Source: Chiloscyllium plagiosum
Taxonomy: Eukaryota
Reading direction: 5' to 3'
DNA: 64,000 nt
Assembly: GCF_004010195.1 (NCBI RefSeq)
Contig: NC_057718.1
Location: forward strand, 79,998,555 to 80,062,554
The position numbers were made by a program, and so were the translations under genes. Of the stretch, positions 38,828 through 64,000 are shown in pieces (the stretch's first letter is position 1; each line of letters begins with the position of its first letter). A model generated the notes under the pieces. The model saw only the letters and a list, made by a program, of their open reading frames with translations, did not search any database and was not told the origin of the DNA.

Positions 38828-39860
38828 ATGACACAAAGTTGGATGGAAGGGTGAGGAGGATACAGAAATCTTGCAGTGTGATTTGGACAGGCTGAGTAGG
38901 TGGTCTATTACATGGTATTCACAAATAGGAAGGCACAGTATTATTTGAATGGCTGTAAGTTAAGATAGATGAATGTTCAATGAGAGCAGTGTGCCTTTGT
39001 GCATCATTCACTGAAAGTAAGCTTGTAGGTACAACAGGCAGTAAAGAAGACAAACTGTATGTTGCCTTCATAGTGGCCAATATAAATTTGAGTACAGGAA
39101 CAAGGATGTCATATTGCAATCATACAGGGCATTGTTGAGGCAATACCTAGAATATTTCATGCAGCTTTGGTTTCTTTTTCTGAGGAAGGATATTCTTGCT
39201 ATAGAGACAGTACAGTGAAGGTTTACCGAATTGATTCCTGGGATGGCAGGACAGGCATATGAGGTGAGATTGAATCAGTTAGGATTATATTCACTGGAAT
39301 TTAGAAGAATGACTGGTGTTCTCATAGAAACCTATAAAGTAGTAACAGGAATAGACAGGTTAGATGCAGGAAGTATGTTCATGATGGTGAATGAGTCCAG
39401 AAACATGCGTCATTGCTTAAAGCTTGGGAATAAACCAAAACCATGCATCATAGTTTAAAGCTAGGGATTAAATCAGAACAAAGCGTCATAGTTTAAAGCT
39501 AGGGAATAAACCAGAACGATGCATCATAGTTTAAAGATAGGGAATAAACCAAAACCATGCATCATAGTTTAAAGATAGAGATTAAACCAGAACGATGTGT
39601 CATAGTTTAAAGATAGGGAATAAACCAAAACCAGGTGTTGTGGTTTAAAGAGATGGGGGGAAATAAACCTGTTAGGACTGAGATGAGAAGTAAACTCTTG
39701 ACAGAGAGTGGTGATTCTATGGAATCCACTGCCATAGAAAGTGGCTGAGACTCGAACATTATGTGTTTCAAAGGAAGTAGACATAGTTCTTGTGGCTAAA
39801 GAGATCAAGGAAAATGGGGCAGGACAGAATTAGAGTATTGAGCTTGATGAGCAGTCTTGA
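38828..39860 (+). mobile_element. 5'-truncated old CR1 with an internal minisatellite
   Basis: DTKLDG..LQCDLDRL and LGLYSLEFRRMTGVLIETYK; CR1 3' sequence resumes at 39668. Confidence 0.85.
39397..39668 (+). repeat. Minisatellite, 7 x 38 bp
   Basis: Units start at 39397, 39435, 39473, 39511, 39549, 39587 and 39625; consensus CCARAACSATGCRTCATAGTTTAAAGMTAGGGAWTAAA. Confidence 0.95.
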
Positions 39861-42987: not shown

Positions 42988-43270
42988 CAATTGTGGATTT
43001 TAAAATTCTCATCAGTGTTTCCAAATCACTCCTCCTCTATGCCTACTTTTGTAATTCCCTCCAGCCTGGCACCCTTTCAAACGACTTGCACTCATCTCAT
43101 TCTGGATTCTTGAGAATTGATCCCTAAAGCTCTTTACCTCACTCTCATCCCTAGGCATAATTTAAAAGTTACTTTTCTAGCCAAGATTTTGGGCATCTGT
43201 CATCAAACCTCCTTATGTGTGCAGTATGAAATTTGTGCCTTGGGTTCCTTTAATTGTTTTTATGAACTTC
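42988..43270 (+). mobile_element. L2-type LINE 3' remnant
   Basis: VDFKILISVSKSL..AYFCNSLQP...DLHSSHSGFLRI matches the L2 C-terminal pattern RIDFKIL..FKSL..PYL..LRSS.SGLL. Confidence 0.65.
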
Positions 43271-43292
43271 TGAAGAAACTTTTAATAGTTCA

Positions 43293-43459
43293 TGATTCGG
43301 ATATGCCGGTGTTGGACTGGGGTGTACAAAGTTAAAAATCACACAACACCAGGTTATAGTCCAACAAGCAATCACCTGATGAAGGAGCGTCGCTCCGAAA
43401 GCTAGTGTGCTTCCAATTAAACCTGTTGGACTATAACCTGGTGTTGTGTGATTTTTAAC
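43293..43459. mobile_element. Fold-back family 2 mini-element, 12-bp TSD
   Basis: Perfect 39-bp inverted repeat 43328-43366 / 43424-43462; TTTAATAGTTCA at 43281-43292 and 43460-43471. Confidence 0.9.
43372..43409 (+). ncRNA. Minimal type I hammerhead ribozyme (family 2), intact core
   Basis: CAC-CUGAUGA-A-GGAGC-GUC-GCUCC-GAAAG-CUA-GUG; stem I CAC/GUG, palindromic AGCU stem III, predicted cleavage after A43404. Confidence 0.8.
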
Positions 43460-45179
43460 TTTAATAGTTCACAGCAATTATAAAGGAATCATTGCAATTT
43501 TCTTGGTTATTATGAAATACTGGTCCATGTGACCTGGGAACACCAACTGAAAGCAATACTGACATAGAGAAAGTTAAGATACAGATCCATCTGGACTTGT
43601 TGATGCAAACGATAGCGTGGGCACAAGGTGGTTAGATCAAAGATGCAACACAAAGAAGAAGCAGATAGGAACAGCAAAGGGGACATAGAATTCTGTTAGG
43701 TTAAGCCAGCAAAGCTCTCTCTGCAAAGACTTTTTTTCCTGTTTGGCAGTAAGAAGTAAAATAGAATGCCGGAAGCTCTTGGGAACCAATGTATGAGAGA
43801 GCTAAAATGGACTGATTCCTAAAAAGCCTTACAAATACCTCAAGTGTTTAAAATACCTCTGGGTTTGTATCAGAAGTAGCCAAACCATGAACTTCTGTGT
43901 TACTGATTGGTGGACTGAAAAGGAACTCTGGAAAACCACATCATTGGGACTGTTATGACCTGAGGGAGAGCAGGGCTTTTGAAGAGTGCCTTGCTGATGG
44001 TAATCACATCCACGGGCTGACAGCTGTCGTTGGACAGCACTCCTGACCTACCCTATGTGAATAAAGAACAGTATACTGTGTAACTGTGTGGCTACAAAAT
44101 ACCATAAATGCTGAATGTACCTTCAACCCACAGCTGTTACCAGCCCACATGAATCTGTATCTTAACCACCTCCATGTCAGTAATGCTTTCAGGTCAGGTG
44201 TTCCCAGGTCACATGCACCAGTAGTTATATTACTCAAGAAAATTGCAAAGATCCCTTTATAATATATGTGAACTATTAAAAGTCTTTTTAGATGTTCATA
44301 AAAGCAACTAAAGAAACCCTAGAAACAAAATAACATGCTGCACACATAAGGTGTGATCGCAGAAACCCAAAATCCGAGCTGAGAAAGTAATTATTAAATT
44401 GCTTTTAGGAAAGAAAGTGAAGTGGAGGGGTTTAGGCAGCAATTCTCAAGAATTGCTTATGGTTGTTTAAGACATACCTTTGTTGCATGTACTATTTCAC
44501 TATTAGTTATTAATCATTTGCATTGGTTCTGATTTGCTTTAAAGTAAGAGTTATAAATAGTGAAATCTTGTTAATTTTCTCTTGTGGGGATCATAACATA
44601 GTTAAGAGCATAAGTACCCTTTTAGTAACCTAATCATTTTTAATGGCTGCTAATTAATTTTTCTGGTTCAAAAAATTAGCAATTAAAAGTGCAGAGCTTC
44701 ATTGCATTAAGAGATGAATTGATATTGAAGATGTTTTTAAATATATTTCTTCTTACTTTTCCACTCTTATTTTTCTCTTTCCTTTAATCCAATCATTCTA
44801 GCCATCTCATTTTATTTCTCTGAATCTGATTTGGAACCCAATTCACACAATCCAGTTTGCACTCCTTCTCAGTTCATCTATTGCTTATTTCTCAATGATT
44901 AAATTTCATTGATTAAGAAAATATACTTTTGACCTTGCCATTCACCGAAGTCCCATATGCCCTAATGCGCTACTCAATCATTGCCAGCTTGCAATTCCAG
45001 CAATTTTGAATGCAAAGTATTTTTTTTGAACTGATGGATGAAGGAAAAAGTCTAAGTAACTGGACATGTTGTGTAATATCCTACTCCAAGAAATTCAGTG
45101 TTATCATAACACAGTAAGGAAAATTACGAGGAGGAACACTGAAGCTCATTCCTCTAAGCTCTCCCTTTGATAGGAAGAC

Positions 45180-45607: not shown

Positions 45608-45799
45608 ATTTATTACACAGGTATAGTTTAAGGCACCAGAGCAAACGTTTGATGGGGCAAAGGATGAAGATGGAGGACTGATTTTGTGAATATTGTAATA
45701 TAAATTCATCAGAGGCTGATCAACTTGCATCCTACAATATTTTAAAGCTTTGAAATCATGGCCCTGGATACCAGCAGACAAATGTTTAACATTGGACAA
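45608..45799 (+). repeat. Source arm of an inverted duplication (partner 47109-47321)
   Basis: Reverse-complement identical except for one substitution and a 21-bp indel. Confidence 0.97.
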
Positions 45800-47108
45800 T
45801 TCTCTCTCACTTAACATTTGGATGAAAGCAGCATACCACTTAGCTTCCAATACTGCAGGAAGACATTTCATGCTAATGTTATCATCATCATATAATTTCA
45901 TGGCCAATCATTTTAAAATGTTACAAGTTGAGACTTATATAATCAAATTACATGGTGTAGTATATTTCTCTTTTTAAGTCTGAGTAAATCAGCAACTTGA
46001 CCATGTTAATATGGAAAAGTAATGGGCAATAAAGCTGAAGTAAGGCATAGAATAAGGAAGTAGAATTGGGGTAGAGGAGCTGAGTAATGACAAAAGAAAC
46101 TGCAAGAAGTGCGGTGGAAATGGAACGAAAAAAGGAGGAAGGGATGGGAGAGAAAATTGGTAAAGGAGAAAAAGGAGGGAGAGTAGCAAGATGGAAAATA
46201 GGAAATGATTGGTAAGGAGGAGACCATGAAGTAAAGGAGAAAAGAGGATGGAGCTTCCGGTTGGTAGCCTTTCAGCCTTCAATTTAAAATTGCAATCATT
46301 CAGATGGGATGGCATAAATCCCTCCGTTTTAACTGATATTACTCATCATCATATCATCTAGCACCCACCCAAACCCTGCCCCAACACTAGCCAGCCCCAC
46401 TAAATTTTACTGAATCGGGCTTAAACATTAACCTATAAGTATCTAACTCTTTTCTCCACTTCTGCAGATGATTTAATCAGGATAGAGAACTCATTTGGTA
46501 GCAACAGTTGATGTAAAGCTTTCTATTACTGACTTCACCAACTTTCTCATTAAAAAAGCAATGAAACACTTCTCTCCCAACTTAGGATGACTATCAATGC
46601 TGGCACTTTAGTTTGACTTCAGCACTTACATTTACCAGCTGTGTTCTCTTATAAATGTTTACTTTCCAACATTACTAATGATGCAAGCTAATTTTATATT
46701 ACATGTTTCAATGAAAAACAGACAAAGCCCCAACAGAAGAGGAAAGCTGCAGAGCTGGAATCTGATTGAAATTACATGCCTGTATCAAATTACTTAAGCT
46801 CACTTAAGTTAAAAAAATTCAAGATCCAATTTTAAATTATATTCTTATGTTCAAAGCCACTCTCATTGTTTGAACAATAATTTATTACAGATTTCATTTA
46901 TAGAAGAAGGAAATTACAGTGGTGACTCACACCTTCCATCGCACACTTGCTATTCACTTCATTAAATGACTACATTGTTGGAAATTGAATCAAGAAGCTG
47001 AGGGACTTCTCTCTCCTTCTGGACGCCTACTCAAATTGTAAGAAGGAAAATGTAACTCCAGGAGCCAAAATTAAACTGGCAAAAATAATTATCATCTTTT
47101 AAGCAAAT

Positions 47109-47321
47109 TTGTCCAATGTTAAACATTTGTCTGCTGGTATCCAGGGCCATGATTTCAAAGCTTTAAAATATTGTAGGATGCAAGTTGATCAGCCTCTGAT
47201 GAATTTATATTACAATATTCACAAAATCAGTCCTCCAGATCTGTTTTTACACAGGAAATCTTCATCCTTTGCCCCATCAAACATTTGCTCTGGTGCCTTA
47301 AACTATACCTGTGTAATAAAT
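47109..47321 (-). repeat. Inverted copy of 45608-45799 abutting a SINE 5' end
   Basis: Direct comparison; also visible as the same peptide in ORFs 45572..45907(-) and 47109..47405(+). Confidence 0.97.
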
Positions 47322-47560
47322 GGAGTTTGCACTTCTCCCCATGTCTGCGTGGGCTTCCTCCGGGTGCTCCGGTTTCCTCCCACAGTCCACAGATGTGCAA
47401 ATTAGGTGGAATGGCCATGCTAAATTGTCCATAGTGTCCAAGAATGTGTAGGTTAGGTGGATTAGCCATGGGAAGGTGGGTTCGGGTGGGATGCTGTTTG
47501 GAGGGTCAATGTGGACTTGATGGGCTGAATGGCCTGTTTCCACATTGTAGCGATTCTATA
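47322..47560 (+). mobile_element. 5'-truncated HE1 SINE
   Basis: Starts GGAGTTTGCACTTCTCCCCATGTCTGCGTGGG; tail GGCCTGTTTCCACATTGTAGCGATTCTAT. Confidence 0.92.
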
Positions 47561-47814
47561 AGGGTAAATGGCACTAATTTTTTGTTTCCACTATCTCACA
47601 TTCACTCTAGTTCTGCTACTGCCTTCACCTCCCACTAATGTTCATGATGCACCACCATTCCCGTGATTGCATGCAGTATCTTCACTCATTGGCTCTCATC
47701 CACTCAATCCTTCCAAACTACTAACGTTCTGTGGTTTCCACTCACTCACTCAGGGCAACTCACCATCTGTCTTCCATCAGCAACTGTACCAACCATTTTC
47801 TCTGTCTTTTTTCC

Positions 47815-48208
47815 CATCGCACATAATAGGGCAGAGAGGGACAAGGCAGGCAGTGGGGTGTCTAACATTAATGTTCTTATCATCGATTTGGAGAAAATAC
47901 TTGCATTATTGGGAGAGGACCATGATCACTTATGTGGTGATGCTGTGATCTCCATGCCTCAGCAACCAAAAAAGATTAATTGTGAAGTGCTGCTCTACTC
48001 TCCCAGTACTGTGAATGTATTCTTAATGTTCCCAAACTTTGACCCCAATTTCACAACTTATTCCCTTTCTTGTCTCCTGCAAGCACGAGCAGCATCCATA
48101 CATCATCTCCAGCACCAGAACAGACAATGGTATGTAAAAAATAGGCACCGAGTGAATAGTGGCATTTTTTATTCGATATTTGTTTATTTTTCTGGTGAAA
48201 TTGGCTGA
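47815..48208 (+). mobile_element. Harbinger Myb/SANT ORF second-exon remnant and possible right end
   Basis: IAHNRAERDKAGSGVSNINVL..LEKILALLGED is homologous to the exon at 7620-7743. Confidence 0.5.
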
Positions 48209-48604
48209 AAATATTTGTTTTGCGGTAGTTTTCATTTCCGCATTGCAACTTAGAGGACATTTTGATACTTAGTAATGGGGGTAGCTAAGATATGGAACGA
48301 TTAATGAATCGAAATTGGGATTGAATCACTGATCCTTTTGGTGAATGAATCCAATCACAGACTGCTGGACAGCAAACATGTTGATTGGCTCCTTCATTCT
48401 ACCTCTTCTTTCTTTTTATCCTCTTTCTTCTCCTCCTCTTCAACTGCTTATACACCTGAAGGCAAGATATATACCTCAAGGATGAACAGATTGTACAGAA
48501 TGCAGTAGACCATGATGAACTATGAAACAATCTATGGTAAATGTTGCAGAGCACCCATTCAGTGGTCAAACCAATGGAAGCATTGCTAGAGCAACCTGAT
48601 GGTT

Positions 48605-48736
48605 AAGGCATAAGTGGGTACTGCAGATGCTGGAGATAAGAGTCAAGGTTAGAGTGGTGCTGAAAAGCACAGCAGGTCATGCAGCATCTGAGGAGCAGGA
48701 AAATTGACGTTTCGGGCAAAAGACCTTCATCAGGAA
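48605..48736 (-). mobile_element. Mini-PLE family 1 with HHR at 48701-48736 (core intact, stem mismatches)
   Basis: Minus strand UUC-CUGAUGA-A-GGUC-UUUU-GCCC-GAAAC-GUC-AAUU, followed by the standard tail. Confidence 0.88.
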
Positions 48737-48738
48737 GG

Positions 48739-49599
48739 TTATTTAAAGTTGGTAAAGGTTTGAAGGGCTCTTAGCAGAGTGTCATATCCACCCAGGATCT
48801 CCAGAGATCAATTCATTTACCAGAATCCTAGTAAGGAACAAACTCCTCAGAGCAGGAGGAGTGGTAAAAGGGGTAACTGTGATCATGAACTTCTTCATGC
48901 CAGGATCTTTCCAGGCTAGAGGAAAAACATCTCCTATGGTTTGCTTGGTGACACTTCGTGTGGTAGCATGGCTCTCACTGCATGCAGACGACCCATGTTT
49001 GTTTACGTTCTCAGGTCATGTGCTAGGTGGTCAGTAGGTTATTTTGTTTCCAGCCATCTTAAATAGTGATAGTACAGCTGACAGAGCTGGTACAGAACAA
49101 GGCATTCTACCTGCTGCCAGGACGTTATGCATTCACGTGCACAATTTTCTGAGCATGATTATACACCAACTGCACATTCAAGGAGGAAAGCTCTTTGTGA
49201 TTTTGGCACATTTTTTGCATTTAGATGCAATGCCTGCAAAGTAACGTGTGCAGTCAATTCCACCATTGGAAAGTTTGTTATTCTTGAGAAGCCTTGTGCA
49301 CTCTAATTTTTTTCTTCTATTTGGAAGACAGAAAACAATTTCCTGGCATTCAGTGTAATAGTCACCTCCCATATACAGAAAACTGTGAGATTTTGGAGAT
49401 GTTGTTTCCAGTAGCCTGGAAAGATCCGGGCATGAAGAAATTCTTGGTCACAGTTACCCCTACAACCACTCCTCCTGCTCAGAGGAGATTGTTCTTTACT
49501 GGGATACTGGTAAACGAATTGATCTCCGGAGATCTTGGGTGGATATGACATTCTGCTGAGAGCCCTTCAAGCCTGAGAGTCTTTATCAACTTTAGATAA
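48739..49599. repeat. Diverged inverted repeat, arms 48739-48934 and 49395-49599
   Basis: About 200-bp arms that align throughout (roughly 85% identity by eye). Confidence 0.92.
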
Positions 49600-49708
49600 G
49601 AATATAAACATTCAGTCACACCCATTAATACAGAAACAGCCATTAAAAATCAATCTGCAACCAAGCTGAAAGTATTGACCAACCCATTAAATACCGGTGG
49701 TGGAGGAG

Positions 49709-52700
49709 GTCATAGAGTCATAGAGATGTATAGCATGGAAATAGACCCTTCGGTCCAACCCGTCTATGCTGACCAGATATCCCAACCCAATCTAGTCCCA
49801 CCTGACAGCACCCGGCCCATATCCCTGCAAACCCTTCCTATTCATATACCCATCCAAATGCCTCTTAAATGTTGCAATTGTACCAGCCTCCACCACATCC
49901 TCTGGCAGCTCATTCCATACACCTAACCATCCTCTGCGTGGAAAAGTTGCCCCTTAGGTCTCTTTTATATCTTTCCCCTCTCACCCTAAACCTATGCCCT
50001 CTAGTTCTGGTTCCCGACTCCAGGGAAAAGACTTTGTCTATTTTTCCTATCCATGCCCCTCATAATTTTGTAAACCTCTATAAGGTCACCCCTCAGCCTC
50101 CGACGCTCCAGGGAAAACAGCCCCAGCCTGTTCAGCCTCTCCCTGTAGCTCAGATCCTCCAACCCTGGCAACATCCTTGTAAATCTTTTCTGAATCCTTT
50201 CAAGTTTCACAACATCTTTCCGATAGGAAGGAGAACAGAATTGCACGCAATATTTCAACAGTGGCCTAACCAATGTCCTTTATAGCCGCAACATGACCTC
50301 CCAACTCCTGTACTCAATACTCTGACGAATAAAGGAAAGCATACCAAACGCCTTCTTCACTATCCTATTTACCTGCAACTCCACTTTTAAGGAGCTATGA
50401 ACCTGCACTCCAAGGTCTCTTTGTTCAGCAACACTCCCTAGGACCTTACCATTAAGTGTATAAGTCCTGCTAAGATTTTCTTTCCCAAAATGCAGCACCT
50501 CGCATTTATCTGAATTAAACTCCATCTGCCACGTCTCAACCCATTGGCCCATCTGGTCCAGATCCTGTTGTAATCTGAGGTAAACCTCTTTGCTGTCCAC
50601 TACACCTCCAATTTTGGTGTCATCTGCAAATTTACTAACTGCACCTCTTATGCTCGCATCCCAATCATTTATGTAAATGACAAAAGTAGAGGGCTCAGCA
50701 CTGATCCTTGTGACACTTCACTGGTCACAGGCCTCCAGTCTGAAAAACAACCCTCCACCACCACCCTCTGTCTTCTACCTTTGAGCCAGTTCTGTGTCCA
50801 AATGTCTCGTTCTCCCTGTATTCCATGAGGTCTAACCTTGCTAATCAGTCTCCCATGGGGAACCTTGTCGAACGCCTTACTGAAGTCCATATACATCACA
50901 TCTACTGCTCTGACCTCATCAATTTTATTTGTTACTTCTTCAAAAAACTCAATCAAGTTTGTGAGACATGATTTCTCATGCACAAAGCCATGTTGACTAT
51001 CCCGAATCAGTCCTTGCCTTTCCAAATACATGTACATCCTGTCCCTCAGAATTCCCTCCAGCAACTTGCCCACCACTGAGGTCAGGCTCACCGGTCTATA
51101 GTTCCCTGGCTTGTCTTTACCGCCCTTCTTAAACAGTGGCACCATGTTTGCCAACCTCCAGTCTTCCTCTCCTGTGACTATCGATGATACAAATATCTCA
51201 GCAAGAGGCCCAGCCATCACTTCTCTAGCTTCCTACAAAGTTCTCGAGTACGCCTGATCAGGTCCTGGGGATTTATCCATTTTTAACCGTTTCAAGACAT
51301 CCAGCACTTCCTCCTCTGTAATCTGGACATTTTGCAAGGTGTCACCATCTATTTCTCTACAGTCTATATCTTCCATATCCTTTTCCACAGTAAATACTGA
51401 TGCAAAATATTCATTTAGTACCTCCCCCATTTTCTGTGGCTTCACACAAAGGCCGCCTTTGCTGATCTTTGAGGGGCCTTATTCTCTCCCTAGTTACCCT
51501 TTTGTCCTTAATATATTTGTAAAAACCCTTTGGATTCTCCTTAACTCTATTTGCCAAAGCTATCTCATGTCTTCGTTTTGCCCTCCTGATTTCCCTCTTA
51601 AGTATACTCCTACTTTCTTTATACTCTTCTAAGGATTCACTTGATGTATCCTGTCTATACCTGACATATGCTTCCTTCTTTTTCTTAACCAAACCCTCAA
51701 CTTCTTTAGTCATCCAGCATTCCCTANNNNNNNNNNNNNNNNNNNNNNNNNNNNNNNNNNNNNNNNNNNNNNNNNNNNNNNNNNNNNNNNNNNNNNNNNN
51801 NNNNNNNNNNNNNNNNNNNNNNNNNNNNNNNNNNNNNNNNNNNNNNNNNNNNNNNNNNNNNNNNNNNNNNNNNNNNNNNNNNNNNNNNNNNNNNNNNNNN
51901 NNNNNNNNNNNNNNNNNNNNNNNNNNNNNNNNNNNNNNNNNNNNNNNNNNNNNNNNNNNNNNNNNNNNNNNNNNNNNNNNNNNNNNNNNNNNNNNNNNNN
52001 NNNNNNNNNNNNNNNNNNNNNNNNNNNNNNNNNNNNNNNNNNNNNNNNNNNNNNNNNNNNNNNNNNNNNNNNNNNNNNNNNNNNNNNNNNNNNNNNNNNN
52101 NNNNNNNNNNNNNNNNNNNNNNNNNNNNNNNNNNNNNNNNNNNNNNNNNNNNNNNNNNNNNNNNNNNNNNNNNNNNNNNNNNNNNNNNNNNNNNNNNNNN
52201 NNNNNNNNNNNNNNNNNNNNNNNNNNNNNNNNNNNNNNNNNNNNNNNNNNNNNNNNNNNNNNNNNNNNNNNNNNNNNNNNNNNNNNNNNNNNNNNNNNNN
52301 NNNNNNNNNNNNNNNNNNNNNNNNNNNNNNNNNNNNNNNNNNNNNNNNNNNNNNNNNNNNNNNNNNNNNNNNNNNNNNNNNNNNNNNNNNNNNNNNNNNN
52401 NNNNNNNNNNNNNNNNNNNNNNNNNNNNNNNNNNNNNNNNNNNNNNNNNNNNNNNNNNNNNNNNNNNAACTTTTAGATCTGGTCTATCCTTTTCCATCAC
52501 TATTTTAAAACGAATAGAATTATGGTCCCTGGCCACAAAGTGCTCCTCCACTGACACCTCAGTCACCTGCCCTGCCTTATTTCCCAAGAGTAGGTCAAGT
52601 TTTGCACCTTCTCTAGTAGTTACATCCACATACTGAATCAGAAAATTGTCTTGCACACACTTAAGAAATTCCTCTCCATCTAAACCTTTAACACTATGGC

Positions 52701-52823
52701 AGTCCCAGTCGATGTTTGGAAAGTTAAAATCCCCTACCTTAGCTACCCTATTATTCTTACAGATAGCTGAGATCTCCTTACAAGTTTGTTTCTCAATTTC
52801 CCTCCGACTATGAGGGAGTTTAT
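49709..52823 (-). mobile_element. CR1/HER1 LINE, 5'-truncated within APE, intact 3' end, spanning a gap
   Basis: VPLFKKG.KDKPGNYRPVSLTSVVGKLLE, QHGF..KSCLTNL, YMDFSKAFDKVPH, QGSVL; tail CTCTATGACTCTATG. Confidence 0.97.
51727..52467. other. Assembly gap
   Basis: Run of N. Confidence 1.
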
Positions 52824-53294
52824 AACCCTTCCTGAATTCATGTGAGGTTGTAAGAAGATGTTAGCTGGAGCCTTGAGATTGAAAAAGGGAATGCAACACA
52901 TTAATCAATATTACATGCTGACTGACATAATTGCTGTATACGGCAACCTCCATATAGACAGCATACTCTCCTAGTACCTGGGTTAGTGGCCACACCAAAA
53001 TGGCACTTGGTGCAAGATGTATCTACAGTGCGAACACATCTTGCACACAAAATAGTACCTGTGGCATGAAAAATAGGTACTACAGAACAAAATTTTGTCA
53101 CCAATGTTTTGTTTCAATACAGATGCAGTTTCTGGAGATGAAAGGGTTGTATACTGATCCATTACACTATCTATTGTCCATAAACATTGTTCTGGAAAAT
53201 ATTTTTAATTGCACAATTGTGATAATAAATGTAGAATAAATCTGAATTCTGGAACTCCATCTGAACTGCTTCTCTATCAAACTTCTCTATCAAA

Positions 53295-54155
53295 AGAAGT
53301 TTACCTCAGAGTACAACAGGAACTTGATCAGATGGGCCAATGGGCGAATGGGCCAAGGAATTGCAAATTAAGTTTAGTTTAGATAAATGTGAGGTGGTAG
53401 ATTTTGGAAAGGCAAATAAGGGCAGGACTTATATGCTTAATGCTAAGGTTCTGGGGAGTGTTGCTGAACAAAGAGATCTTGGAGTGCAGGTTCATAGTTC
53501 CTTAGAAATAGAGTCACAGGTAGATAGGATAGTGAAGAAGACATTTGGTATGCTTATATTTATTGGTCAGTGCACTGAGTATAGGAGTTGGGAGTTCATG
53601 TTTTGGCTGTACAGGACTATTGGATTATTACATGCATCTCACATCTCCCTGCTATAAAAAGGATGTTGTGAAACTTGAAAGTGTCCAGAAAAGATTTATA
53701 AGGATCTTACCAAGGTTGGAGGGTTTGAGCTCTACGGGAGAGGCTGAATAGACTGGGGCTATTTTCCTGAAGTGTTGGAGGCTGAGGGGTTATCTTCTAG
53801 AGGTTTAAAAAAATCATGAGGGGCATGGACAAAGTCTTTTCCCTGGCGTGGGGAGTCCAAAGCTAGAAGGCAAAGGTTTAAGATGTGAGGGGAAAGATTT
53901 AAAAGGGAACTAAAGGGCAACCTTATCACACAGAGGGTGGTGGGTGTATGGAATGAGCTGCCAAAGGAAGTGGTAGAGGCTGGTACAATTACAATATTGT
54001 AAAGGCATCTGGATGGGTGTATGAATAGGAAGGTTTTGGAGAGATATGGAACAAATACTGGCAAATGGGACTAGATTTATTTATAATATCTGGTCGGCAT
54101 GGACGAGTTGGACCAAAGACTCTGTTTCGAGCTGTATATCTCTCTGACTCTATGA
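53295..54155 (+). mobile_element. 5'-truncated CR1/HER1 LINE
   Basis: KCEVVDFG..AEQRDLGVQVHSSL; tail CTCTGACTCTATGAC; 13-bp tandem duplication CTTCTCTATCAAA at 53269-53294 at the 5' junction. Confidence 0.93.
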
Positions 54156-54514
54156 CACAAACATCTGTGGAAACATTTAACATACTCAAAGACCATGAGT
54201 CACAAAAGAAATTTCATATTTGTCAGACTGCTTGGATAAGCAATGTTAGCTTTGGTACAACTGATTTTGGATTTAAATCTGATCAAAGCATTTGTTCCCA
54301 TACTTTTACAAGTGTACCAACTTGAAAAGTTACCAGGTTATATTCTGTCAAATCCTTAAACTATGCAATTTGACAGCTCTTTGCTATTAATTTCAAGTGT
54401 TGTAAGCAGTACAGAATTTAAATCAAGAGTAAACAAGATAATTCAGGCATCACATAGACAATATTCAAACAAATTTAATTGGGAAGGATAAAATTCAAAT
54501 TAATTTAGACTTTG

Positions 54515-54610
54515 CAAGCTAGAGAAATTCTTTTCCTTAACTGCTAGGGAAAAGAACAAACATCGATTATCAGATAATCAACTACTACTCAAGTGTACCA
54601 TGGTACATAT
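54515..54610 (+). repeat. Source arm of a 96-bp inverted duplication (partner 55002-55097)
   Basis: Reverse-complement match with one mismatch; contains the palindrome TGTACCATGGTACA. Confidence 0.97.
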
Positions 54611-54654
54611 ATATTTGTACCTTAAGGAACTGAAAATAATACCCATAGGAAGAA

Positions 54655-54838
54655 AGTCTTTCACAACCTTAAGAAACCATGTAGCACTTTACAGCCAATT
54701 AAATACTTCTGTGAAATGTAGAAACTATTGTAATGTCAGGAATTCAGCGAGACTCCACAAATGTGATAATAACAAAATAATCTGTTTCAGTGATATTGGT
54801 TAAGGTTTTAAATATTGGCCACAGCCCAGGGAGAACTC
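54655..54838 (-). mobile_element. Deu-domain SINE 3' half
   Basis: Reverse complement GGCCAATATTTA..AACCAATATCACTGAAACAGATTAT..ATTGGCTGTAAAGTGCT..GTTGTGAAAG. Confidence 0.7.
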
Positions 54839-55095
54839 TGCAGGCCAGTGACAACTTGGGGGTAGCTTCCCTTAACAGGCTGGGAGAGGTATTGTACTTG
54901 TACTCTCATTGAGCCACAAGTTTGAAAGGACAACAGCAGAGGTCCTCACTATGGACTTTAGCTTTCTTACATTGGGATCCTTCCAAGCTGGAGAAGGCAA
55001 CATATGTACCATGGTACACTTGAGTAGTAGTAGATTATCTGATAATCGATGTTTGTTCTTTTCCCTAGCAGTTAAGGAAAAGAATTTCTCTAGCT

Positions 55096-55747
55096 TGTGT
55101 ACACAGATCTCTGAAAGTTGCCACCCAGGTAAATAGTGCGGTGAGGAAAGCATATGGCGTACTGGCTTTTATTGGTAGAGGAATTGAGTTCCGGAGTCCT
55201 GAGGTCATGATGCAGTTGTATAAGACTCTGGTGCGGCCGCATCTGGAATATTGTGTGCAGTTTTGGTCGCCATACTATAGGAAGGATGTGGAGGCACTGG
55301 AACGGGTGCAGAGGAGGTTTACTGGTATGGAAGGAAGATCGTATGAGGAAAGACTGAGACACTTGGGGCTGTTTTCATTAGAGAAAAGAAGGTTTAGGGG
55401 TGACTTGATTGAGGTGTACAAGATGATTAGGGGGTTAGATAGGGTTGACAGTGTGAACCTTTTCCCGCGTATGGAGTCGGGTATTACAAGGGGGCATAGC
55501 TTTAAATTAAGGGGGGGTAGATATAGGATTGAAGTTAGGGGTAGGTTCTTCACTCAGCGAGTCGTAAGTTCATGGAATGCCCTGCCAGTAGCAGTGGTGG
55601 ACTCTCCCTCATTATGGGCATTTAAGCGGGCATTGGATAGGTATATGGAGGATAGTGGGTTAGTATAGGTTAGGTGGGCTTGGATCGGCGCAACATCGAG
55701 GGCCAAAGGGCCTGTACTGCGCTGTATTCTTCTATGTTCTATGTTCT
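55096..55747 (+). mobile_element. Young 5'-truncated CR1 (different subfamily)
   Basis: Open 175-aa frame LYKTLVRPHLEYCVQFWSP..RGDLIEVYK..TRGHSFKL; CpG-rich; tail (TTCTATG)n. Confidence 0.95.
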
Positions 55748-56539
55748 ATATGTAACATCTCTGAAATCATTGTTCACTGTTGTATCTGAGACACGACAGA
55801 TCCTCTACCAGTAAAGGGGTGTTCACTGTTTTTAGTTGCACAGTCTTTGCATTCACAGCTCTAGACTAAGCTGTTGGGAAACTGTAACAATAGGGATACT
55901 GCAAGTACAATTGCTGTTATCTTGAGGAAAGACAGCAGGCCTTGTGTACTAGAAACTGACCTCTACTTTCCTGAGCAGCACCTCAGCGGTCCTAGAAATC
56001 AGCTGGATCATAAATATCGATACAGCAATGACACTCAAAGACTCTCCCAGTATTGGGATCTGAAGATATGATAGCAACAATCTGAGCGTGCTTGAGTGAC
56101 CTTGCATAGCAACAAACAGATTTTGTGGCCTCAGTCTGAGCTTCTCATGCTCCATTACTACAGTAAAGAACTACATAAAAGTAAAAGATAAAGCATAAAA
56201 GTGCAAAACCAAACACAGATCCTGGCAACTAGGAGATATACAAACAACAAAAGATGACAACAGATTGTAAGAGCAATGTGCAGGAAGTATAAAATTGGTA
56301 ATTGTTTAATTATAAATAAAAATAAGGAAATGGGGACATACCAAAATTACCACAAAGTAAAATTACAAGGAGAAGATTTCCACAAGAATGGTATATATGC
56401 AGGATCAGATGGTTTGTACACCAGGGTTTAAACAAAATAGGTGAGACTAATGCAGTTTATTCAATCACAATCTTTAAAAGTTGTCTTGATTTAGAAAAGC
56501 AGTGACTAAGGAATATCTATGAATATTGACCCTTGTCAC

Positions 56540-57210
56540 CTATGTATATTTGTTCTTCCTTGGGATTAATTTTTGCTGTGCTTCACGAATTACCATCAGA
56601 ATCTCCTGCCAATGCTGATCCACTATCTTCCTTGCTAAGCTCCCCTTCCAATCAATACTGGCCAGCTCCTCCTGCAAGTCTTTGTAGTTACCTTTACTCA
56701 ATTGTAATACCATTACGTCTGATTTCAGCTTCTCCATGTCAAACTGCAGGGTGAATTCAGCCAAATTATGGTCACTGTCTCCTCGGGGCTTGTCCACCTT
56801 CAGCTCTCTAATCAAGTCGACCTCATTAATATCACCAAATCCAGAAATGCTAATTCTCTTGTTGGTTGTACCACACGCTGCTCCAAAAAAACCATATCGT
56901 AAATATTCCACAAATTCCTGATTTTTGCAATCTGCTTGGATATTAAATCTTCCATGATTATTGTAACAGTGCTTTTCTGACATGCCTTTTCTACCTCCTG
57001 ATTTATTTTCTGCCCACATCCTGACTACTGTTAGGCGGCCAGGGCATAACCCACTTCAGGGTCTTTTTTCCGTTGCAATTCCTCAACTCTACCCACACAG
57101 ATTCCACACCTTCCAACTCTATTTCACTTCTTGCTTTTGATTTAATTTGATTTCTTACGAACAAGACAACCACCCCCCTTCCCCCTACCCACCCACCTGC
57201 TTATTCTTTT
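56540..57210 (-). mobile_element. Old CR1 ORF2 APE fragment
   Basis: GRFNIQAD, EFVEYL, LIRELKV..P.GDSDHNLAEF, KGNYK..ELASIDW. Confidence 0.8.
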
Positions 57211-59043
57211 CAATAGAACGTTTGCCCTTTGGTATATCTAAACCCCCATGGTCACACATAGCCAACATGGAAAACCATACACCTGTACCCATTCCTCATG
57301 GTCCCTCAAGTTCTCCATGCCAATCTATGCCATTCTGACCACACAAAATAGCCCTGCATGCCATCTTAGTCAGCCTATGCTTTTCTACCCACTTCTATGG
57401 TCCTTTAGAGTTCTGCTGCAAACATAGTGCTAACTCACAGCAAACTATATCCCACACATAACTTTACAACCCGTGACCAGACCTCATGTTGGACCTCTGC
57501 TAGGATGAGATTAACTAACACTCTTAATTAATGAATGAAGAATTCACTATAAGATCCTAACAGGGAAGAGGAGAAATAGGCCATTTGGCCCATTGAAACT
57601 GCTCTTCAATTCAATAAGATCATGGCTGTTCTGGTATCATCAATTGTACTTTTCTATCTTTTCCCATTAATCCTTGGTTTTCTTATTGACTGCAGATTTG
57701 TCTATCTTGGACTTGAATATTTTTAACAATGCAACCTTGACACCTCTGCGCAGTGAAAAATTCCACAGATTCACTAAGAAGAAATTTCACCTCACCTTTG
57801 TCTTAAATGGGTGGTTCTTACTCTGAGATTCTGCTCTTTGGTCTAGACTCTTCCACAAGGGGAAATAACTTCTCTATATCTACCCTGTCAAGCCTCCTAA
57901 TAATCCATGTTTCATTAATTTCTCCTCCAACTTTTCTCAACTCCAATCTAGGCCCAAGCTAACCCCTCCTCAGAAGAAAATCCTTGAGTAAACCTAAAGA
58001 ATCTTCTTAGGACTACCTCCAATGTCAGTATATCTTTCCTTAGGTAAGGCAAATAAAGTACTTTTAATATTCTAAATGTGGTCTGACTAGTGCTTTGTAT
58101 AGATTTAACAAGATTTCCATATTCTTAAGTATTATTCTCTTTGAAATAAAGGTCAACATCTTATTTTCCTTCCTTGTTACCCAATGAACTTGTATACTAG
58201 CTTTTTGTGATATGTCAGAGACCCCCAACACCCCCCGAACAAATCTCATTGTGCTGCAGATTTCTGAAGTTTCTCTCCATTTAAATAATACTCAGTTGCT
58301 CTATTCTTCCTACCAAAGTGCATAACCTTACATTTTCCCACATTGTATTTCATCTGCCACGTTTCTGCCCACTCACTTGGCCTGTCTATATATATGCCTT
58401 GGTAGACTTTATGTCTCATCCTCACTACTTGCCTTCCTATCCATTTTATACCATCCATATACTTGGCTATAGGACATTCATTTTTCTTATCCAAGTCACA
58501 AGTAATTGTAACCATAGCACTCACCCTGTGGCATCCCACTAGTTGCAGGTTACTATCCTGAACATGCTCTCTTTATCCAAACTCTCTGTCTTCTATTAGT
58601 TGGCCAATTATTATCCAACACCATGGGTTTTTAACTTAAGTTATCTTATATATGGTAACTTATTAATCACCTTATGGAAATTCAAATACATTACATCTAT
58701 TGGTTACTCTCTATCTTTCCCTGATGGTTACCTCCTCAAAGAATTATAATTTATGTCAAGCATCATTTCCCTTTCATGAAGCCATAACAATGCTGCTTGA
58801 TTATATTATGCACTTCTAAATGACCTGCTATTACATCTTTTATAATCTAATATTTTCCCAATGACAGGTGTTAAGATAACTGGCTGAAAGTTATCTATTT
58901 TCTGTCCCCCTCCTTTTTTGAACAAAGGTGGTACATTCTCATTTTTCCAATTATCTGTGGCATTTTCAAAATTGAAGGATTCTTAGAACGTTTCTACCAG
59001 TGTGCCCACTATCTATGTAATTACTGCCTTTAACATCCGAAGA

Positions 59044-59252
59044 GGAGAAAGTGAGGACTGCAGATGCTGGAGATCAGAGCTGAAAATGTGTTGCTGGAAA
59101 AGCGCAGCAGGTCAGGCAGCATCCAAGGAACAGGAGAATCGACGTTTCGGGCATAAGCCCTTCTTCAGGAAGGGCTTATGCCCGAAACGTCGATTCTCCT
59201 GTTCCTTGGATGCTGTCTGACCTGCTGCACTTTTCCAGCAACACATTTTCAG
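59044..59252. mobile_element. Young fold-back mini-PLE (family 1), 16-bp TSD
   Basis: CTTTAACATCCGAAGA at 59028-59043 and 59253-59268; near-perfect arms of about 85 bp meet at 59164-59168. Confidence 0.95.
59137..59171 (-). ncRNA. Minimal type I hammerhead ribozyme, intact core
   Basis: UUC-CUGAAGA-A-GGGC-UUAU-GCCC-GAAAC-GUC-GAUU; predicted cleavage after C at 59141. Confidence 0.78.
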
Positions 59253-60733
59253 CTTTAACATCCGAAGATACCACTAATCAGATTCAGGGAACTTATCAGC
59301 TTGTAGCCTCATTAGTTTTCCAAGTACTTTTTTCTCCAGTGATAGTTGTATTTATTTCTTTCCCCCAAATTTTGTTCCTTACCCCTTGATTATTTAGTAT
59401 GTTTTGAATGCTGTCTGTGTCCTTTACTGTGAAGACAAATGTAAAGTATTTAATCAGTTCCTCTGTCATTTCCAGACTCCCCATTCTTATTTCCTCGGAC
59501 TCTGTAAGGGCCTATGTTCTCTTTTATGTTTGTAAAGAAGATTTTACTGTCCATTCCTATATTACTTGCTAGTCTATTTTTCCCCTCTTTGCTATTTTTT
59601 GGTCATCTTTTGTTGGCTTTTAAAACTTGCTCAATCATCTGGTTTAACACTAATGTTTGCCACTTTTTCTGATTTTTTTTTCAGTTTGATACTTAACTTT
59701 ACTTCCTTGGTTAACCATGGTTGATTTACTCTCTTCCTAGAATCCTTGTTTCTTACTGGGATTATCTTTGCTGCTAGTCATGAACTGATTCACTTCTTCA
59801 ATTTTTTTTTATGCTAAGCTCCTTTCTAATCCACTCCAGCCAACTCTGTCCCCATCCCTTTGTACTTACCATTATTTAAGTTTTGCATAGTTATTTCCAA
59901 CCCCAGTTTCTCCTCAAACAGAATGCTAAATTCCATCATTTTATGGTAATTGTTGCCTAGGAGATCTTTTACTCTCAGAACATCTAGACAACCTGCTTCA
60001 TTACACATTCCAAATCCAGAATAGCCTGATCGCTGGTTGGATCCACAATGTATTGTTCTGGGAAACTGTGTCGAAAATTCTCTATGAATTCTTCCTTATT
60101 TTTATCTCTGCTAATTCGGTTTACCAATATACACGAAGGTCACTCATAATTAGTGTTCTGCCCTGTAATATCCCTCAATATTTCCTAATTTGTTCTCTAT
60201 CGTACCGTACAGCTACTGTTAGGGGCCTGTAAAGTGTGCCAACAGTGTCTTTTTCCTCTTGATATTTCATACCTCCACCATACAGATTCTATACCATCCA
60301 ATCCACTTTCTTGCCACTGTACTTACTTCATCTCATAATAACAAAACTCGCATTTTTCCTTCCTTTCACAAAGGCACATACCCTTGAATATTTACTTCCA
60401 TGCTTTGATCTCATTCTATAAGATCATATCTATTAACCTTTGTGTCATTAATTAATTTACTTTGTTCAAACTTCCATGCACATTTAAGTAAAGAATCATT
60501 AATGTTGCCTTTTAACCATTTGTTTTCCCACCTTGATCCTGTTTGTTGTTTCTTTTATGCTTGTACACTGTGTCCTTTCCTGTACCACTCTGGGTACCAC
60601 TAAACAAATAGGTGTTCTATCATACCATTGCATGCTTTTGGGAGAAAGTGAGGACTGCAGATACTGGAGATCAGAGTCGAAAAGTGTGGTGCTGGAAAAT
60701 CTCAGCAGGTCAGGCAGCACCCAAGGAGCAGGA

Positions 60734-60770
60734 GAGTCGATATTTCAGGCATAAGCCCTTCATCAGGAAT
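60734..60770 (-). ncRNA. Minimal hammerhead motif, core intact, AUC site
   Basis: AUUC-CUGAUGA-A-GGGC-UUAU-GCCU-GAAAU-AUC-GACU. Confidence 0.6.
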
Positions 60771-61258
60771 GTAGCATTTGTCTAACCAATATCAATTAAT
60801 CTTCAATTTAAAATAAAATTTTGACCTCGGAGCAATTACCATTACCAATGATCCTTCTTCAGAACTCAGCATCTACGAAAAACTGATATTTGACTTTCTT
60901 TCCTCTCTCTCTGGGCTCTGTCTCTAATGATGTGCTCACTCCTTTTTCCACCACCCTCTGTCATCAAGCAAAATGCCTTTTTTTTCAATGCTGTCAGTTC
61001 TGAAGATGGGTCACTGGACCCAAAAACTTAACTGTTTTCTGTCCACAATGCTGCCAGATCTGCTTACTTTCTCCAGAAATTTCTGTTTTTGTTTAAAAAT
61101 AAACTGTCTGAAATATTAATAAAAATCAGAGATTGGTATAACACTGTCTGTTGATGTTTCATGACTGATTTCACAATCTTTAATTACCAGAGTTGGGTTA
61201 CCTGACATTTCAGTTTTCTTGAGAGCTCCAACTGGTTGTACACTGCATGAAGTGTAGC

Positions 61259-61295
61259 ATGCCTGATGAAGGGCGAATGCCTGAAATGTCGACTC
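61259..61295 (+). ncRNA. Minimal hammerhead motif, core intact, with wobble pairs
   Basis: C-CUGAUGA-A-GGGC-GAAU-GCCU-GAAAU-GUC-GAC. Confidence 0.55.
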
Positions 61296-61696
61296 TTCTG
61301 TTCCTTGGATGCTGCCTGACATGTTGTGCTTTTCCAGCGCCACACTTTTTGCCACTATATGCTTTTGCTTTATAAGCTTAGGTTTTCCTTCTCCTGAACC
61401 TTCTTCCTTATTTAATTTAAAGCCTTCTTAATACACCTAATTATTGATTCACCAGGATACAACCAGTGTGGTTCAAATGAAGCCTGTTCCACCAGAATAG
61501 CATCCTTCTATCCTCAGTATTGATGCCAGTGTCCATGGCCTGAACCTCACTCCTCCCACACAATCTTTGAGCCATCCATTAATTATTTGACTTTGGTTAT
61601 TCCATGCCATTTGTCCATGGTTTAAGTAGTAAATTTGAGAGTTTCTGCTTTTTCAGTTTAGCTTGTAACTGTTCAAAATATTTTAGCAAAATCAAT

Positions 61697-62059
61697 TTTT
61701 TTAAATTGATTCATGGGATGAGGGTGTCATTGGTAAGGCCAGCATTTAGTGCCCACTCCTAAGTGCTCAGAGGGCAGTTAAGAGTGAACCACATTGCTGT
61801 GGGTCTGGAGTCACATAGAGATCAGACCAGGTAAAGATGGCAGTTTCCTTCCCTAAAGGACTTTAATGAATCAGATGGGCTTTTCTGACAATCAGTAATG
61901 GATACATGGTCACCATTAGATTCTTAATTCTACATTTTTTTTCATGCAATTCAAACTTCACCATCTGCCATGACAGGGTTTGAACATGGATCCCTAAAAT
62001 ATTATCTCAGTCTCTGGAATAACAGTCCAGTGATAATACCACTAGGCCACCACCTCCCC
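61697..62059 (-). mobile_element. tRNA-derived SINE with LINE-like tail (third SINE family)
   Basis: Minus-strand head GGGAGGTGGTGGCCTAGTGGT (A box) and GTTCAAACCC (B box); related pieces at about 37465-37640(+) and 38360-38520(-). Confidence 0.75.
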
Positions 62060-62585
62060 ATAATAGTGTTGGTACTAATGATGATAATTAGTTGGCTCTT
62101 GCCCCACTCCAGGTTCCACCTCAGGTCTGAAGAGATGTTCTTAATCATGGAACCAGGCAGACAACATAAGACTTTGGGACTCAGAAAGCAGGATCTATAT
62201 CCCCAGTTATATTGCCCCACACCAGAATAAAATTCCTATTTCCTTCCTGAACATGTACGGATCCCTATACCACAATGTCATGGTCAGTTTCCTCATCTTC
62301 CCTCTCATCCACACAGCCTGTGAGAACATCATAACTGTTGGACAACTGCAGAGACTGAAGCTCCTCAAGCGCTATTCCTAGGGCCTCTATACTGGCCTCA
62401 CTTGGAGTCATACCCACCTGTCTTTAATGATTAGATCACTTAAATTGCTTACAATGAAGGGTGTGACCACTATTTTAATAAGAAATTTTCTCATTGATAA
62501 AAATGTATTCACTACATTTAGCTTAATTCATACCCACACATAAACAAACCCTGGAATTCATTGCCCCACTTCATGGAGCGTAAAG

Positions 62586-63055
62586 CCAGTTGGAGCTCTC
62601 AAGAAAACTGAAATGTCAGGTAACCCAACTCTGGTAATTAAAGGTTGTGAAATCAGTCATGAAACATGCAGGTCTTAAGTCAACAGACAGTGTTATACCA
62701 ATTCTGACTTTTATTAACATTTCAGACAGTTTATTTTTAAACAAAAACAGAAATTTCTGGAGGAAGTAAGCAGATCTGGCAGCATTTGTGGACAGAAAAC
62801 AGAGTTAAGTTTTTGGGTCCAGTGACCCATCTTCAGAATTGTGACAGAATTGAAAAAAAATTTTTATCTTGATGACAGGGGGTGGTGGAAAAAGGAGTGA
62901 GCACATCGATGGAGACAGAGCCCAGAGACAGAGTGAGGAAAGAAAGTCAAATACTAGTTTTTCGTAGATGCTGAGTTCTGAAGAAGGATCACTGGTAATG
63001 GTAATTGCTGCTAGGTTAAAATTTTATTCTAAATTGAAGATTAATTGATCTTGGT
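62586..63055 (+). repeat. Source arm of a ~470-bp inverted duplication (partner 60785-61235); includes family 3 PLE-tail pieces
   Basis: Aligns in reverse complement throughout (roughly 90% identity by eye, with one indel of about 12 bp). Confidence 0.95.
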
Positions 63056-63124
63056 CAACTAGACATATTAAAGGACAAATGGAAAAGACAGAGATATAGT
63101 AATACGGGTTCAACCACAAATCAG

Positions 63125-63300
63125 GTCAGGCAGCATCCAAGGAACAGGAGAATCGATGTTTCGGGCATAAGCCCTTCCTTAGGAGGCTTATGCCCGAAAC
63201 GTCGATTCTCCTGTTCCTTGGATGCTGCCTGACCTGCTGCGCTTTTCCAGCAACACATTTTCAGCTCTGATCTCCAGCATCTGCAGTCCTCACTTTCTCC
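63125..63300. mobile_element. Young fold-back mini-PLE (family 1), 15-bp TSD, inserted in a CR1 tail
   Basis: TCAACCACAAATCAG at 63110-63124 and 63301-63315; arms meet at stem II of the HHR, and CTGANGA is lost. Confidence 0.95.
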
Positions 63301-64000
63301 TCAACCACAAATCAGCCAGGATTTCATTTAATGGTGGAATATGCTTTAAGACCAAAATGACCGTATCCTGTTCCTGAGGTGATTGGGGCTTATAGCTGTG
63401 CTTTTACAATCTGGCATTTCCATGTTGCCTTGCTTCTCCGGAAGTAGCCCTAACTGGCATTCAACGATTATCTCACGACAACTGACAACTTCTTGGAGAT
63501 TTTGTATTCAATCTTTTGTGGCACCCATTGATGTAAATCATCCAGCCACATGGATTTACATAATTTTAACTCTTTTTACTTTTATTCGAGCCTGAGAATT
63601 TTATGCAATCACACCAGAGTCACTAGCTGACATACAAATCTTTCTATTAGGCTGCATGCTAATATAATAACTATTTTCTGAACTAATCAGGCAGCGAGTT
63701 AACTTTTTTTAGTTCATCAACAATTTTCATTCTGTATTCTTAAGGGACTCTTCTTTCTTGACAATATTCCTGTTGTCATATGCTGGAAGAATTTCTTGCT
63801 GTAACATTTAGTATGTAGGTCTATGTTCATTTCTAGATCTCCATTTGCATTAATGACTGCCACTTCTTATTTTTTTTGTAAGTTTAAATTCTGTCATGCT
63901 GGAGGGAATTAAATATGTAACCATCACAAATGCCTACATAGTATGAAGAAGCAAACTGTGTGATGTGAGTTGATGGAATTTAAGTAAAAGCTGCCTTAAA

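Follow-up and report, generated by a model that had tools for sequence, protein, structure and literature searches.

Inverted copies of nearby DNA beside four retroelements in Chiloscyllium plagiosum: one ortholog-verified co-insertion and probable scars of fold-back repair

In a 64,000-nucleotide stretch of contig NC_057718.1 of Chiloscyllium plagiosum (the window), four retroelements lying within 18 kb, here E1 to E4, each abut an inverted copy of DNA from their own neighborhood. The region falls within an intron of the host gene, parkin, on the minus strand. All four copies were found where the original prediction had placed them, with donor-copy gaps of 0.39-1.31 kb (0.4-1.3 kb had been claimed) and, as it had also proposed, with the orientation that co-insertion with the element would predict in every case. 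Full-length matches to the arms are local only; the E4 donor contains an older repeat. We also recovered a fifth, older inverted pair that the prediction had overlooked (left arm 43106-43600, right arm 44139-44453); a fold-back element (43260-43482), bounded by a TSD of its own, later split the left arm. The copies are thus real, but E1-E4 are not four equivalent retroinsertions.

E3 is a true co-insertion of a CR1-type LINE and an inverted copy, because contigs of the related species B and C join position 55001 to 55748, with element and copy both absent. Its donor (54515-54610, + strand) ends in TACATAT, which is complementary to the TSD; the inverted copy (55002-55097, -) begins with the seven nucleotides of the left TSD, ATATGTA, and is followed by the 5'-truncated LINE with a TATGTTC tail (55098-55747, +) and the right TSD (55748-55754, +), the latter delimited by the species B and C contigs. 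Copy and donor differ at 1 of 96 positions, and the arms are identical at 96/96 with another individual's sequence, while the element shows 70-85% protein identity to the natural RT ORFs of our sample and has nucleotide relatives at 97%. The 7-bp TSD is exact, and the same 7 bp constitute a microhomology to the donor end; the junction between copy and CR1 displays none. The probability of meeting a given 7-mer is p=0.007 in a stretch of 96 nt but p=0.11 in one of 1.5 kb, a difference that mildly favors priming by the upstream end. Among 20 young relatives of this CR1, none of the 12 readable 5' junctions carries an inverted copy; the other eight 5' ends lie in assembly gaps, and complex junctions may be under-counted.

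At E2, a mini-Penelope-like element (mini-PLE; 48605-48738, -; 94% to the best of 40 scored relatives) has at its 5' end an inverted copy (48739-48934, -) of a local donor (49395-49599, +), and the two together are enclosed by the TSD core ATGGTT (left 48599-48604, right 48936-48941, both +). This TSD is exact over 6 bp and matches at 9/10 with a gap, versus the 13-16 bp typical of the family. Copy and donor differ at 22 of 196 positions (11.2%, or 5.6% for each arm), and the element is 6% from the best of 40 scored relatives. Since these ages agree and a partial TSD is present, the copy was probably coupled to the insertion of the element. Species B carries E2 in a single contig, and an empty site was not seen; in species C, parts of E2 lack cover.

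E4 features a second mini-PLE (full arm 60641-60769, -; 93% to the best of 40 scored relatives, i.e., 7% away), bounded by a 16-bp TSD with 13 matching positions (60625-60640 and 61352-61367, +). On the far side of its copy we found an opposite-facing piece of the same element (61258-61351, +; 12/90 substitutions relative to the full arm), and the inverted copy (about 60776-61254, -) hence sits within the loop of a fold-back element. There it is enclosed on its own by an 8-bp direct repeat, TGTAGCAT (60770-60777 and 61253-61260, +). The prediction had overlooked both the second piece and this repeat. The loop sequence flanks the copy on both sides, yet it is not that of the family, being present in 1 of 117 upstream contexts in either direction. 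The donor (62567-63068, +), which contains the older repeat of about 200 bp, differs from the copy at 19 of 446 core positions. Counting non-CpG differences, the element arms differ at 11/85 and copy and donor at 18/441 (Fisher p=0.003). Bounded by an 8-bp direct repeat of its own and with about one third of the element's age, the E4 copy is likely a later event.

The E1 copy (47109-47321, -) is very young and stands beside an old SINE lacking its 5' part (47322-47559, +), which is presumably HE1, the label given in the original prediction. It differs from its donor (45608-45799, +) by one substitution in 192 (99.5% identity) and carries 21 extra nucleotides, while the SINE is 11% from the column majority, with its best of 40 scored relatives at 84%, a roughly twenty-fold age gap. 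Given this near-identity, the distance of the SINE from its best scored relative and the failure to find a TSD at E1, the copy is likely a later event than the SINE insertion. Contigs of another individual of the same species break at 45770 and 47138, within the E1 arms. The SINE 3' junction is found in species B, the contig of which stops aligning at 47107, although the depth over the copy and 236 unaligned letters also fit a copy being present; species C has no cover over the start of the copy. The 21 extra nucleotides are more likely donor sequence missing from the reference allele, as a donor 21 nt longer is apparently present in another individual and in species B, judging from assembled lengths. 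Templated filler was rejected as their source, the sole local match being 9 nt long. Both E1 and E4 could owe a falsely young look to gene conversion of their arms.

The mini-PLEs also show an inverted 5'-truncated copy of themselves beside the element: 80 pairs lie head-to-head within 25 nt versus 3 tail-to-tail. A CTGATGA...GAAA core, as in a hammerhead motif, is visible in the mini-PLE sequence; an Rfam search returned no ribozyme family and only hairpin-type matches below the gathering score. In 12 cases mini-PLEs lie downstream of, and co-oriented with, ORFs that we label PLE, in which a Pfam search found no match of note.

Taken as a set, the events depart from the original prediction in timing. 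It had proposed that all four copies arose as the elements inserted, and this was not confirmed: coupling is established at E3, probable at E2 and contradicted by age at E1 and E4, whereas copy and element agree in age at E2 and E3. A TSD around element plus copy, claimed for three cases, holds at E3, is partial at E2, and at E4 is present but joined by the second repeat around the copy alone. The comparison with related sharks that it had suggested yielded an empty site at E3 in species B and C, whereas E2 is shared with B and E4 is apparently common to both. In other individuals of C. plagiosum, contigs break at the E1 and E3 duplications.

A 1.8-Mb sample of the genome places these copies in context. 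Local inverted two-copy pairs at 100-4000 bp number 19, far above the chance expectation of 0.08, and 12 events lie outside the window in 1.74 Mb (about 0.7 per 100 kb), 4 of the 12 having been checked for genome-wide uniqueness. Ten of the twelve touch no labeled element, which supports the proposed element-independent host fold-back step and makes it wider than proposed. One lies at a 5' edge (0.56 expected), where the copy splits an element that is continuous in seven other copies. A polarity bias toward TE 5' ends was not apparent in the sample, with copies at 4 of 692 5' edges and 6 of 896 mirror 3' edges; this is an outcome that the prediction had named as counting against it, though these are small, uncurated counts of low power. 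Class counts are rough, as the "CR1" label of our annotation also took in one or more further fold-back families, and few HE1 and CR1 copies yielded a TSD (2/117 and 5/132 at score 11). Enrichment in parkin introns, also envisaged, was not borne out: the flanks hold 1 event in 385 kb against 3.1 expected. Abortive retrotransposition was rejected as the origin of the element-free copies, as a TSD score of at least 7 occurs in 2 of 19 versus 9.5% of random pairs, which is no excess. Candidate coupled cases outside the window were likewise rejected: in C3a the element inserted into the copy, in C5a the copy splits an older element, in C5b the element has its own TSD, in C4b and C1b the copy lies inside or cuts a SINE, an HE1 case sits in older repeat sequence without a TSD, and a 38-bp candidate is ambiguous; C6b is multicopy element sequence. 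A single plausible capture was retained, in direct orientation and with a 10-bp TSD. Local copies in direct orientation are also present in the sample.

The clustering that the prediction had called striking is tight, as five events in about 20 kb have p=4e-7, with 0.07 expected genome-wide (Poisson), though the expectation is about 5 when a whole 64-kb window is taken. The four look-alikes in 18 kb are likely two coupled events and two coincidences in a window chosen among some 55,000.

On balance, we regard the four copies as probable scars of break repair by fold-back, made with the insertion at E3, likely also at E2, and likely later at E1 and E4. From the junctions we infer that a resected 3' end would fold back on its own strand 0.4-1.3 kb away, copy 100-480 bases and then be joined, possibly as in the SDSA-like repair of a double-strand break. 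In the case of E3, ATATGTA in the upstream overhang would anneal to TACATAT, where the donor ends; synthesis would then add about 90 nt before a microhomology-free joining to the CR1 cDNA. The loop of the finished fold-back mini-PLE at E4 may have been broken and patched likewise, leaving the 8-bp repeat, and E1 may record a patched break that fell within the SINE or next to it, with loss of the SINE's 5' part. The resection, the priming, the end that copies and the enzyme responsible are all putative.

That all four are instead co-insertions, with the upstream end folding back each time and E1 and E4 made young-looking by gene conversion of their arms, would account for the single polarity, the TSDs around element plus copy at E2-E4 and the tight cluster, and the species B contig at E1 is also compatible with it; we nonetheless consider it improbable, as E1 has no TSD and shows the roughly twenty-fold age gap, the direct repeat of the E4 copy needs an already finished fold-back junction, the sample shows no polarity bias, and other old inverted arms in it stay 7-24% diverged, so that conversion is not general. 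A similarly low likelihood attaches to a jump at E2-E4 of the element's reverse transcriptase, or of a polymerase on the cDNA end, to nearby DNA, with host fold-back playing no part, as in the "snap-back" of R2. End-snap-back is indeed routine for mini-PLEs, where 43 of 64 TSD-bearing copies include an additional 31-150 nt that are almost always antisense self sequence, the E3 copy/CR1 junction lacks microhomology, and PMC11371274 describes how the 3' end of the cDNA can prime synthesis on cDNA or on target DNA close by. Such a jump yields the same product sequence, but it makes 7 nt of microhomology on the TSD side less likely and leaves the element-free copies unexplained.

Two further origins appear much less probable still. 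Reverse transcription from nascent parkin pre-mRNA near a break, which the location in a minus-strand intron would allow, is very doubtful: priming would have to come from the cDNA end at E3, with the donor on the downstream side of transcription, but from the opposite end at E2 and E4, with the donor on the upstream side, all donors lie within 1.7 kb though the gene has introns of >100 kb, and the copies show neither poly(A) nor splicing. One co-inserted piece of local pre-mRNA does feature among the cases of Nam 2023 (PMC10191854). Least probable of all are assembly artefacts, suggested by the near-identical arms of E1 and E3 and the many gaps in the assembly; independent runs break at the repeat edges, the E2 and E4 arms are 4-11% apart, and species B carries E2 in one contig.

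Repair by fold-back, which we prefer, leaves a type of scar already known in vertebrates. The repair-mediated duplications of Pace 2009 (PMC2671141), described from human to zebrafish and attributed to SDSA, are 50-619 bp long (mean 162 bp), come from a single donor no more than 5 kb away (about 1.2 kb on average), lie inside older transposons and show microhomology, filler, deletion and sometimes a TSD. The C. plagiosum copies agree in size (96-480 bp), distance (0.39-1.31 kb) and junction types (7 nt of microhomology at E3, 2 nt on each side at E4, loss of the SINE 5' part at E1, poly(A) absent). Sharks are not among the species listed there, the orientation of copies is apparently not tabulated, and our rough density of about 7 inverted events per Mb is higher than the 0.08-0.65 per Mb of TE given there, with methods and age ranges that differ. 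Human L1 insertions offer a comparable process: an inverted upstream copy of 52-220 bp at the 5' junction with the TSD kept, in 0.3-0.4% of insertions, the model being that the reciprocal end, once resected, anneals to itself and serves as the primer (Nam et al. 2023, PMC10191854; bioRxiv 10.1101/2024.12.14.628481). Here, the elements are CR1 and Penelope-like, the events are germ-line, and the donor is 0.4-0.5 kb away, whereas the preprint (bioRxiv 10.1101/2024.12.14.628481) ties inverted duplications to small hairpins. Zebrafish L2/CR1 LINEs (PMC4245944, PMC2666801) and R2 snap-back junctions (PMC11371274) also display host-dependent copying of flanking DNA at the 5' junction, but of several nucleotides, against the 96-196 bp of E2 and E3. 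Penelope-like insertions are also described as carrying a hammerhead motif and a 5'-truncated copy in inverted orientation (PMC8557442, PMC4209133). The mini-PLEs have the same fold-back arms at the 5' end and may share the motif; unlike in those insertions, the E4 loop holds 480 bp of local DNA and E2 has local DNA in the usual place of the inverted arm. The scheme also resembles the inversions templated by local fold-back that arise at breaks in yeast (PMC11724301), which are mostly 5-34 bp, primed by microhomology at one end and end-joined at the other, and dependent on Pol delta, so that polymerase theta is not the sole candidate.

The four-event cluster reveals no new mechanism. With E3, orthologs verify a clean germ-line example of fold-back duplication at the 5' junction of a CR1, in which the target duplication reads as the primer; what has been described for human L1 is thereby extended to a different class of LINE. 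More speculatively, and we hold this as a tentative possibility, this shark genome may be unusually rich in such scars, with about 25,000 local inverted copies (70-600 bp) at several times the density reported for other vertebrates, fold-back mini-PLE loops acting as hotspots of breakage and capture, and neighboring DNA being duplicated long after insertion. The sample suggests that sharks have kept thousands of such scars, which would permit junction statistics, such as the priming end and its reach, beyond the handful of human cases.

The four inverted local copies of the original prediction, each beside a retroelement, are real and of a known kind, and its reading of them is partly mistaken. 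Self-comparison of the window recovered all four pairs of copy and donor: E1 (copy 47109-47321, donor 45608-45799; 1/192 substitutions, the copy longer by 21 nt), beside a SINE that we take to be HE1; E2 (copy 48739-48934, donor 49395-49599; 22/196 differences), beside a mini-Penelope; E3 (copy 55002-55097, donor 54515-54610; 1/96), beside a CR1; and E4 (copy about 60776-61254, donor 62567-63068; 19/446 in the core), beside another mini-Penelope. Multicopy TE termini, the alternative raised with the prediction, do not account for the arms: genome searches find the only full-length match of each arm at its local partner, and thus the arms are not element termini. All lie in an intron of parkin, which is encoded on the minus strand, as indicated by matches to the RING0 family PF17976 (window 25151-25264 (-), the RING0 exon; the next matching exon is ~111 kb further along). 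The claim that all four copies were made at element insertion holds for E3 by its empty site and probably for E2, whereas the ages make E1 and E4 likely later events. Of the three target site duplications (TSDs) said to enclose element plus copy, those of E3 (7 bp) and E4 (16 bp, 13 matching) stand, and that of E2 is exact over 6 bp only, the mini-Penelope family mostly showing 13-16 bp.

E3 is a true co-insertion of copy and CR1. Two other species (X5, X10) have contigs that join 55001 directly to 55748, so that the copy, the CR1 and one ATATGTA repeat are absent together in both relatives. The copy begins with the 7-nt TSD, which is also complementary to the donor end, and no microhomology is seen at the copy/CR1 junction. 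The letter at 54580 in a same-species individual and both relatives makes the arms identical (96/96); the contig of that individual breaks at 54581-54610 and 55031. The CR1 is young, with relatives at 97%, and codes for the end of an ORF resembling the RT-bearing ORFs of our sample. The E2 copy was probably coupled to insertion as well: its arms are 11.2% apart (5.6% each), and of 40 scored relatives of its element the best differs by 6%. Species B carries the element end, copy and donor of E2 within one contig, and therefore no empty site is seen.

The E1 copy is likely later than its SINE, an order drawn from the age gap and not from orthologs. The SINE, with its 5' part missing, departs from the column majority at 26/238 sites, and the best of the 40 relatives scored out of 7322 candidates is 16% away from it, whereas divergence between the arms is at most 0.5%; no TSD was found at the junctions. 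The SINE 3' junction is present in species B. Alignments of contigs from species B and C end at 47107, the copy edge, with 236 and 172 letters continuing unaligned; the species B length would fit the copy plus 22 nt of SINE, and cover in species C over the copy is incomplete (21.7 of 39.7). Species B was considered as an empty site and set aside as ambiguous, as its contig is covered to the same depth over the copy as overall.

The E4 copy likely came later, into an existing fold-back element, that is, a mini-Penelope with an inverted partial self-copy at its 5' end. Past the copy comes a second element piece, in the reverse orientation (61258-61351); the TSD surrounds the full arm, copy and second piece; and the copy sits in the loop with TGTAGCAT on either side, TGTAGCAT not being family sequence. 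This build is usual for the family (80 head-to-head pairs within 25 nt vs 3 tail-to-tail; in 43/64 TSD-bearing copies the 5' end is longer by 31-150 nt, almost always antisense self sequence) and matches what PMC8557442 describes for Penelope-like elements. Non-CpG differences are 11/85 between the element arms vs 18/441 between copy and donor (p=0.003; p=0.0006 with the TSD). Arm and TSD divergence are similar over 43 fold-backs (7.1% and 5.4%, the latter pulled down by selection for detectable TSDs), so the arms show no strong hypermutability. A clear local copy occurs in 1 (E4) of ~80 sampled fold-backs, plus one doubtful 38-bp case.

Other fold-backs occur in the window. A young one at 59028-59268 (TSD 16 bp) is specific to this lineage, since in species B and C 59027 is followed directly by 59253; another lies at 63110-63315 (perfect 15-bp TSD); and a member of a second family (43260-43482), its core hammerhead-like, has a TSD of its own and interrupts one arm of an inverted copy that predates it.

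As a mechanism for coupled copies, resection would take off the 5' strand and leave the upstream 3' end single-stranded, with its own strand as the only nearby single-stranded template; copying it would yield an inverted copy of upstream DNA and keep the TSD whole. The same fold-back model is drawn for L1 (bioRxiv 10.1101/2024.12.14.628481) and likewise by Nam 2023 (3 plus 1 cases, 52-220 bp), such copying in yeast uses Pol delta (PMC11724301), and the extra 5' nucleotides that fish LINEs take from flanking DNA are known to depend on the host (PMC4245944, PMC2666801). Synthesis starting from the cDNA end (PMC11371274) would give a product identical to that of the upstream-end model. The element-free and later copies fit repair-mediated duplication (PMC2671141). 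Our literature search, with supplements (possibly bearing on orientation and species) outside its scope, turned up no publication that describes copies of this kind in sharks.

A survey of local copies took in 464 kb round the window together with 28 blocks, each of 50 kb and placed at preset positions, from the 20 largest contigs; without N, this sample comes to 1.80 Mb. Pairs seen only twice within this sample, at 100-4000 bp, comprise 19 inverted and 12 direct alignments, where cross-block pairs put the expectation at 0.08 and 0.04. The inverted alignments represent 17 events, of which the window holds 5, its flanks 1 (385 kb) and the remaining sequence 11 (1.35 Mb); the density beyond the window is 0.69 per 100 kb, or ~25,000 events if extrapolated. 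Genome-wide checks of four among these 12 events beyond the window show their full-length match to be local only. The outer ends of 10/12 touch no labelled element; one event touches a 5' edge vs 0.56 expected, and it splits an element continuous in 7 other copies. Individual copies include a young one (99%) of 152 bp with a 428-bp gap and no element at its ends (L017:8678-9409), one of 590 bp split later by a mini-element, with arms found nowhere else (L054:3747-5287), and, in the window, a 117-bp direct copy, 764 bp from its local partner, and a short tandem array (40630-41627 and 39397-39669).

The polarity towards element 5' ends that the original prediction drew did not recur in an edge-anchored search outside the window: upstream inverted matches occur at 4/692 unique-flank 5' edges vs the mirror pattern at 6/896 3' edges, at low power, and 7 direct upstream matches lie at 5' edges. 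On inspection, 0/4 inverted 5'-edge cases are TSD-supported co-insertions, and one direct case is plausible as capture: at L005:9989 to L006:2150, a 10-bp repeat surrounds a SINE and the 280-bp direct copy before it, from 1.2 kb upstream. For the E3 CR1, 20 young relatives (L181-L200) were chosen from its 41 other genome matches; the 5' end falls in an assembly gap in 8 of them, and 0/12 readable ends show an upstream inverted copy. As neither the edge search nor these junctions gave a supported inverted case, coupled captures are rare, compatible at low power with the human L1 rate of 0.3-0.4%. Five events in a 64-kb window (p=9e-5) correspond to about 5 such windows per genome, and five in 20 kb (p=4e-7), with borders set after the fact, to 0.07 per genome; selection of the window accounts for the former figure but not fully for the latter, and this part of the parkin intron may be a small local hotspot.
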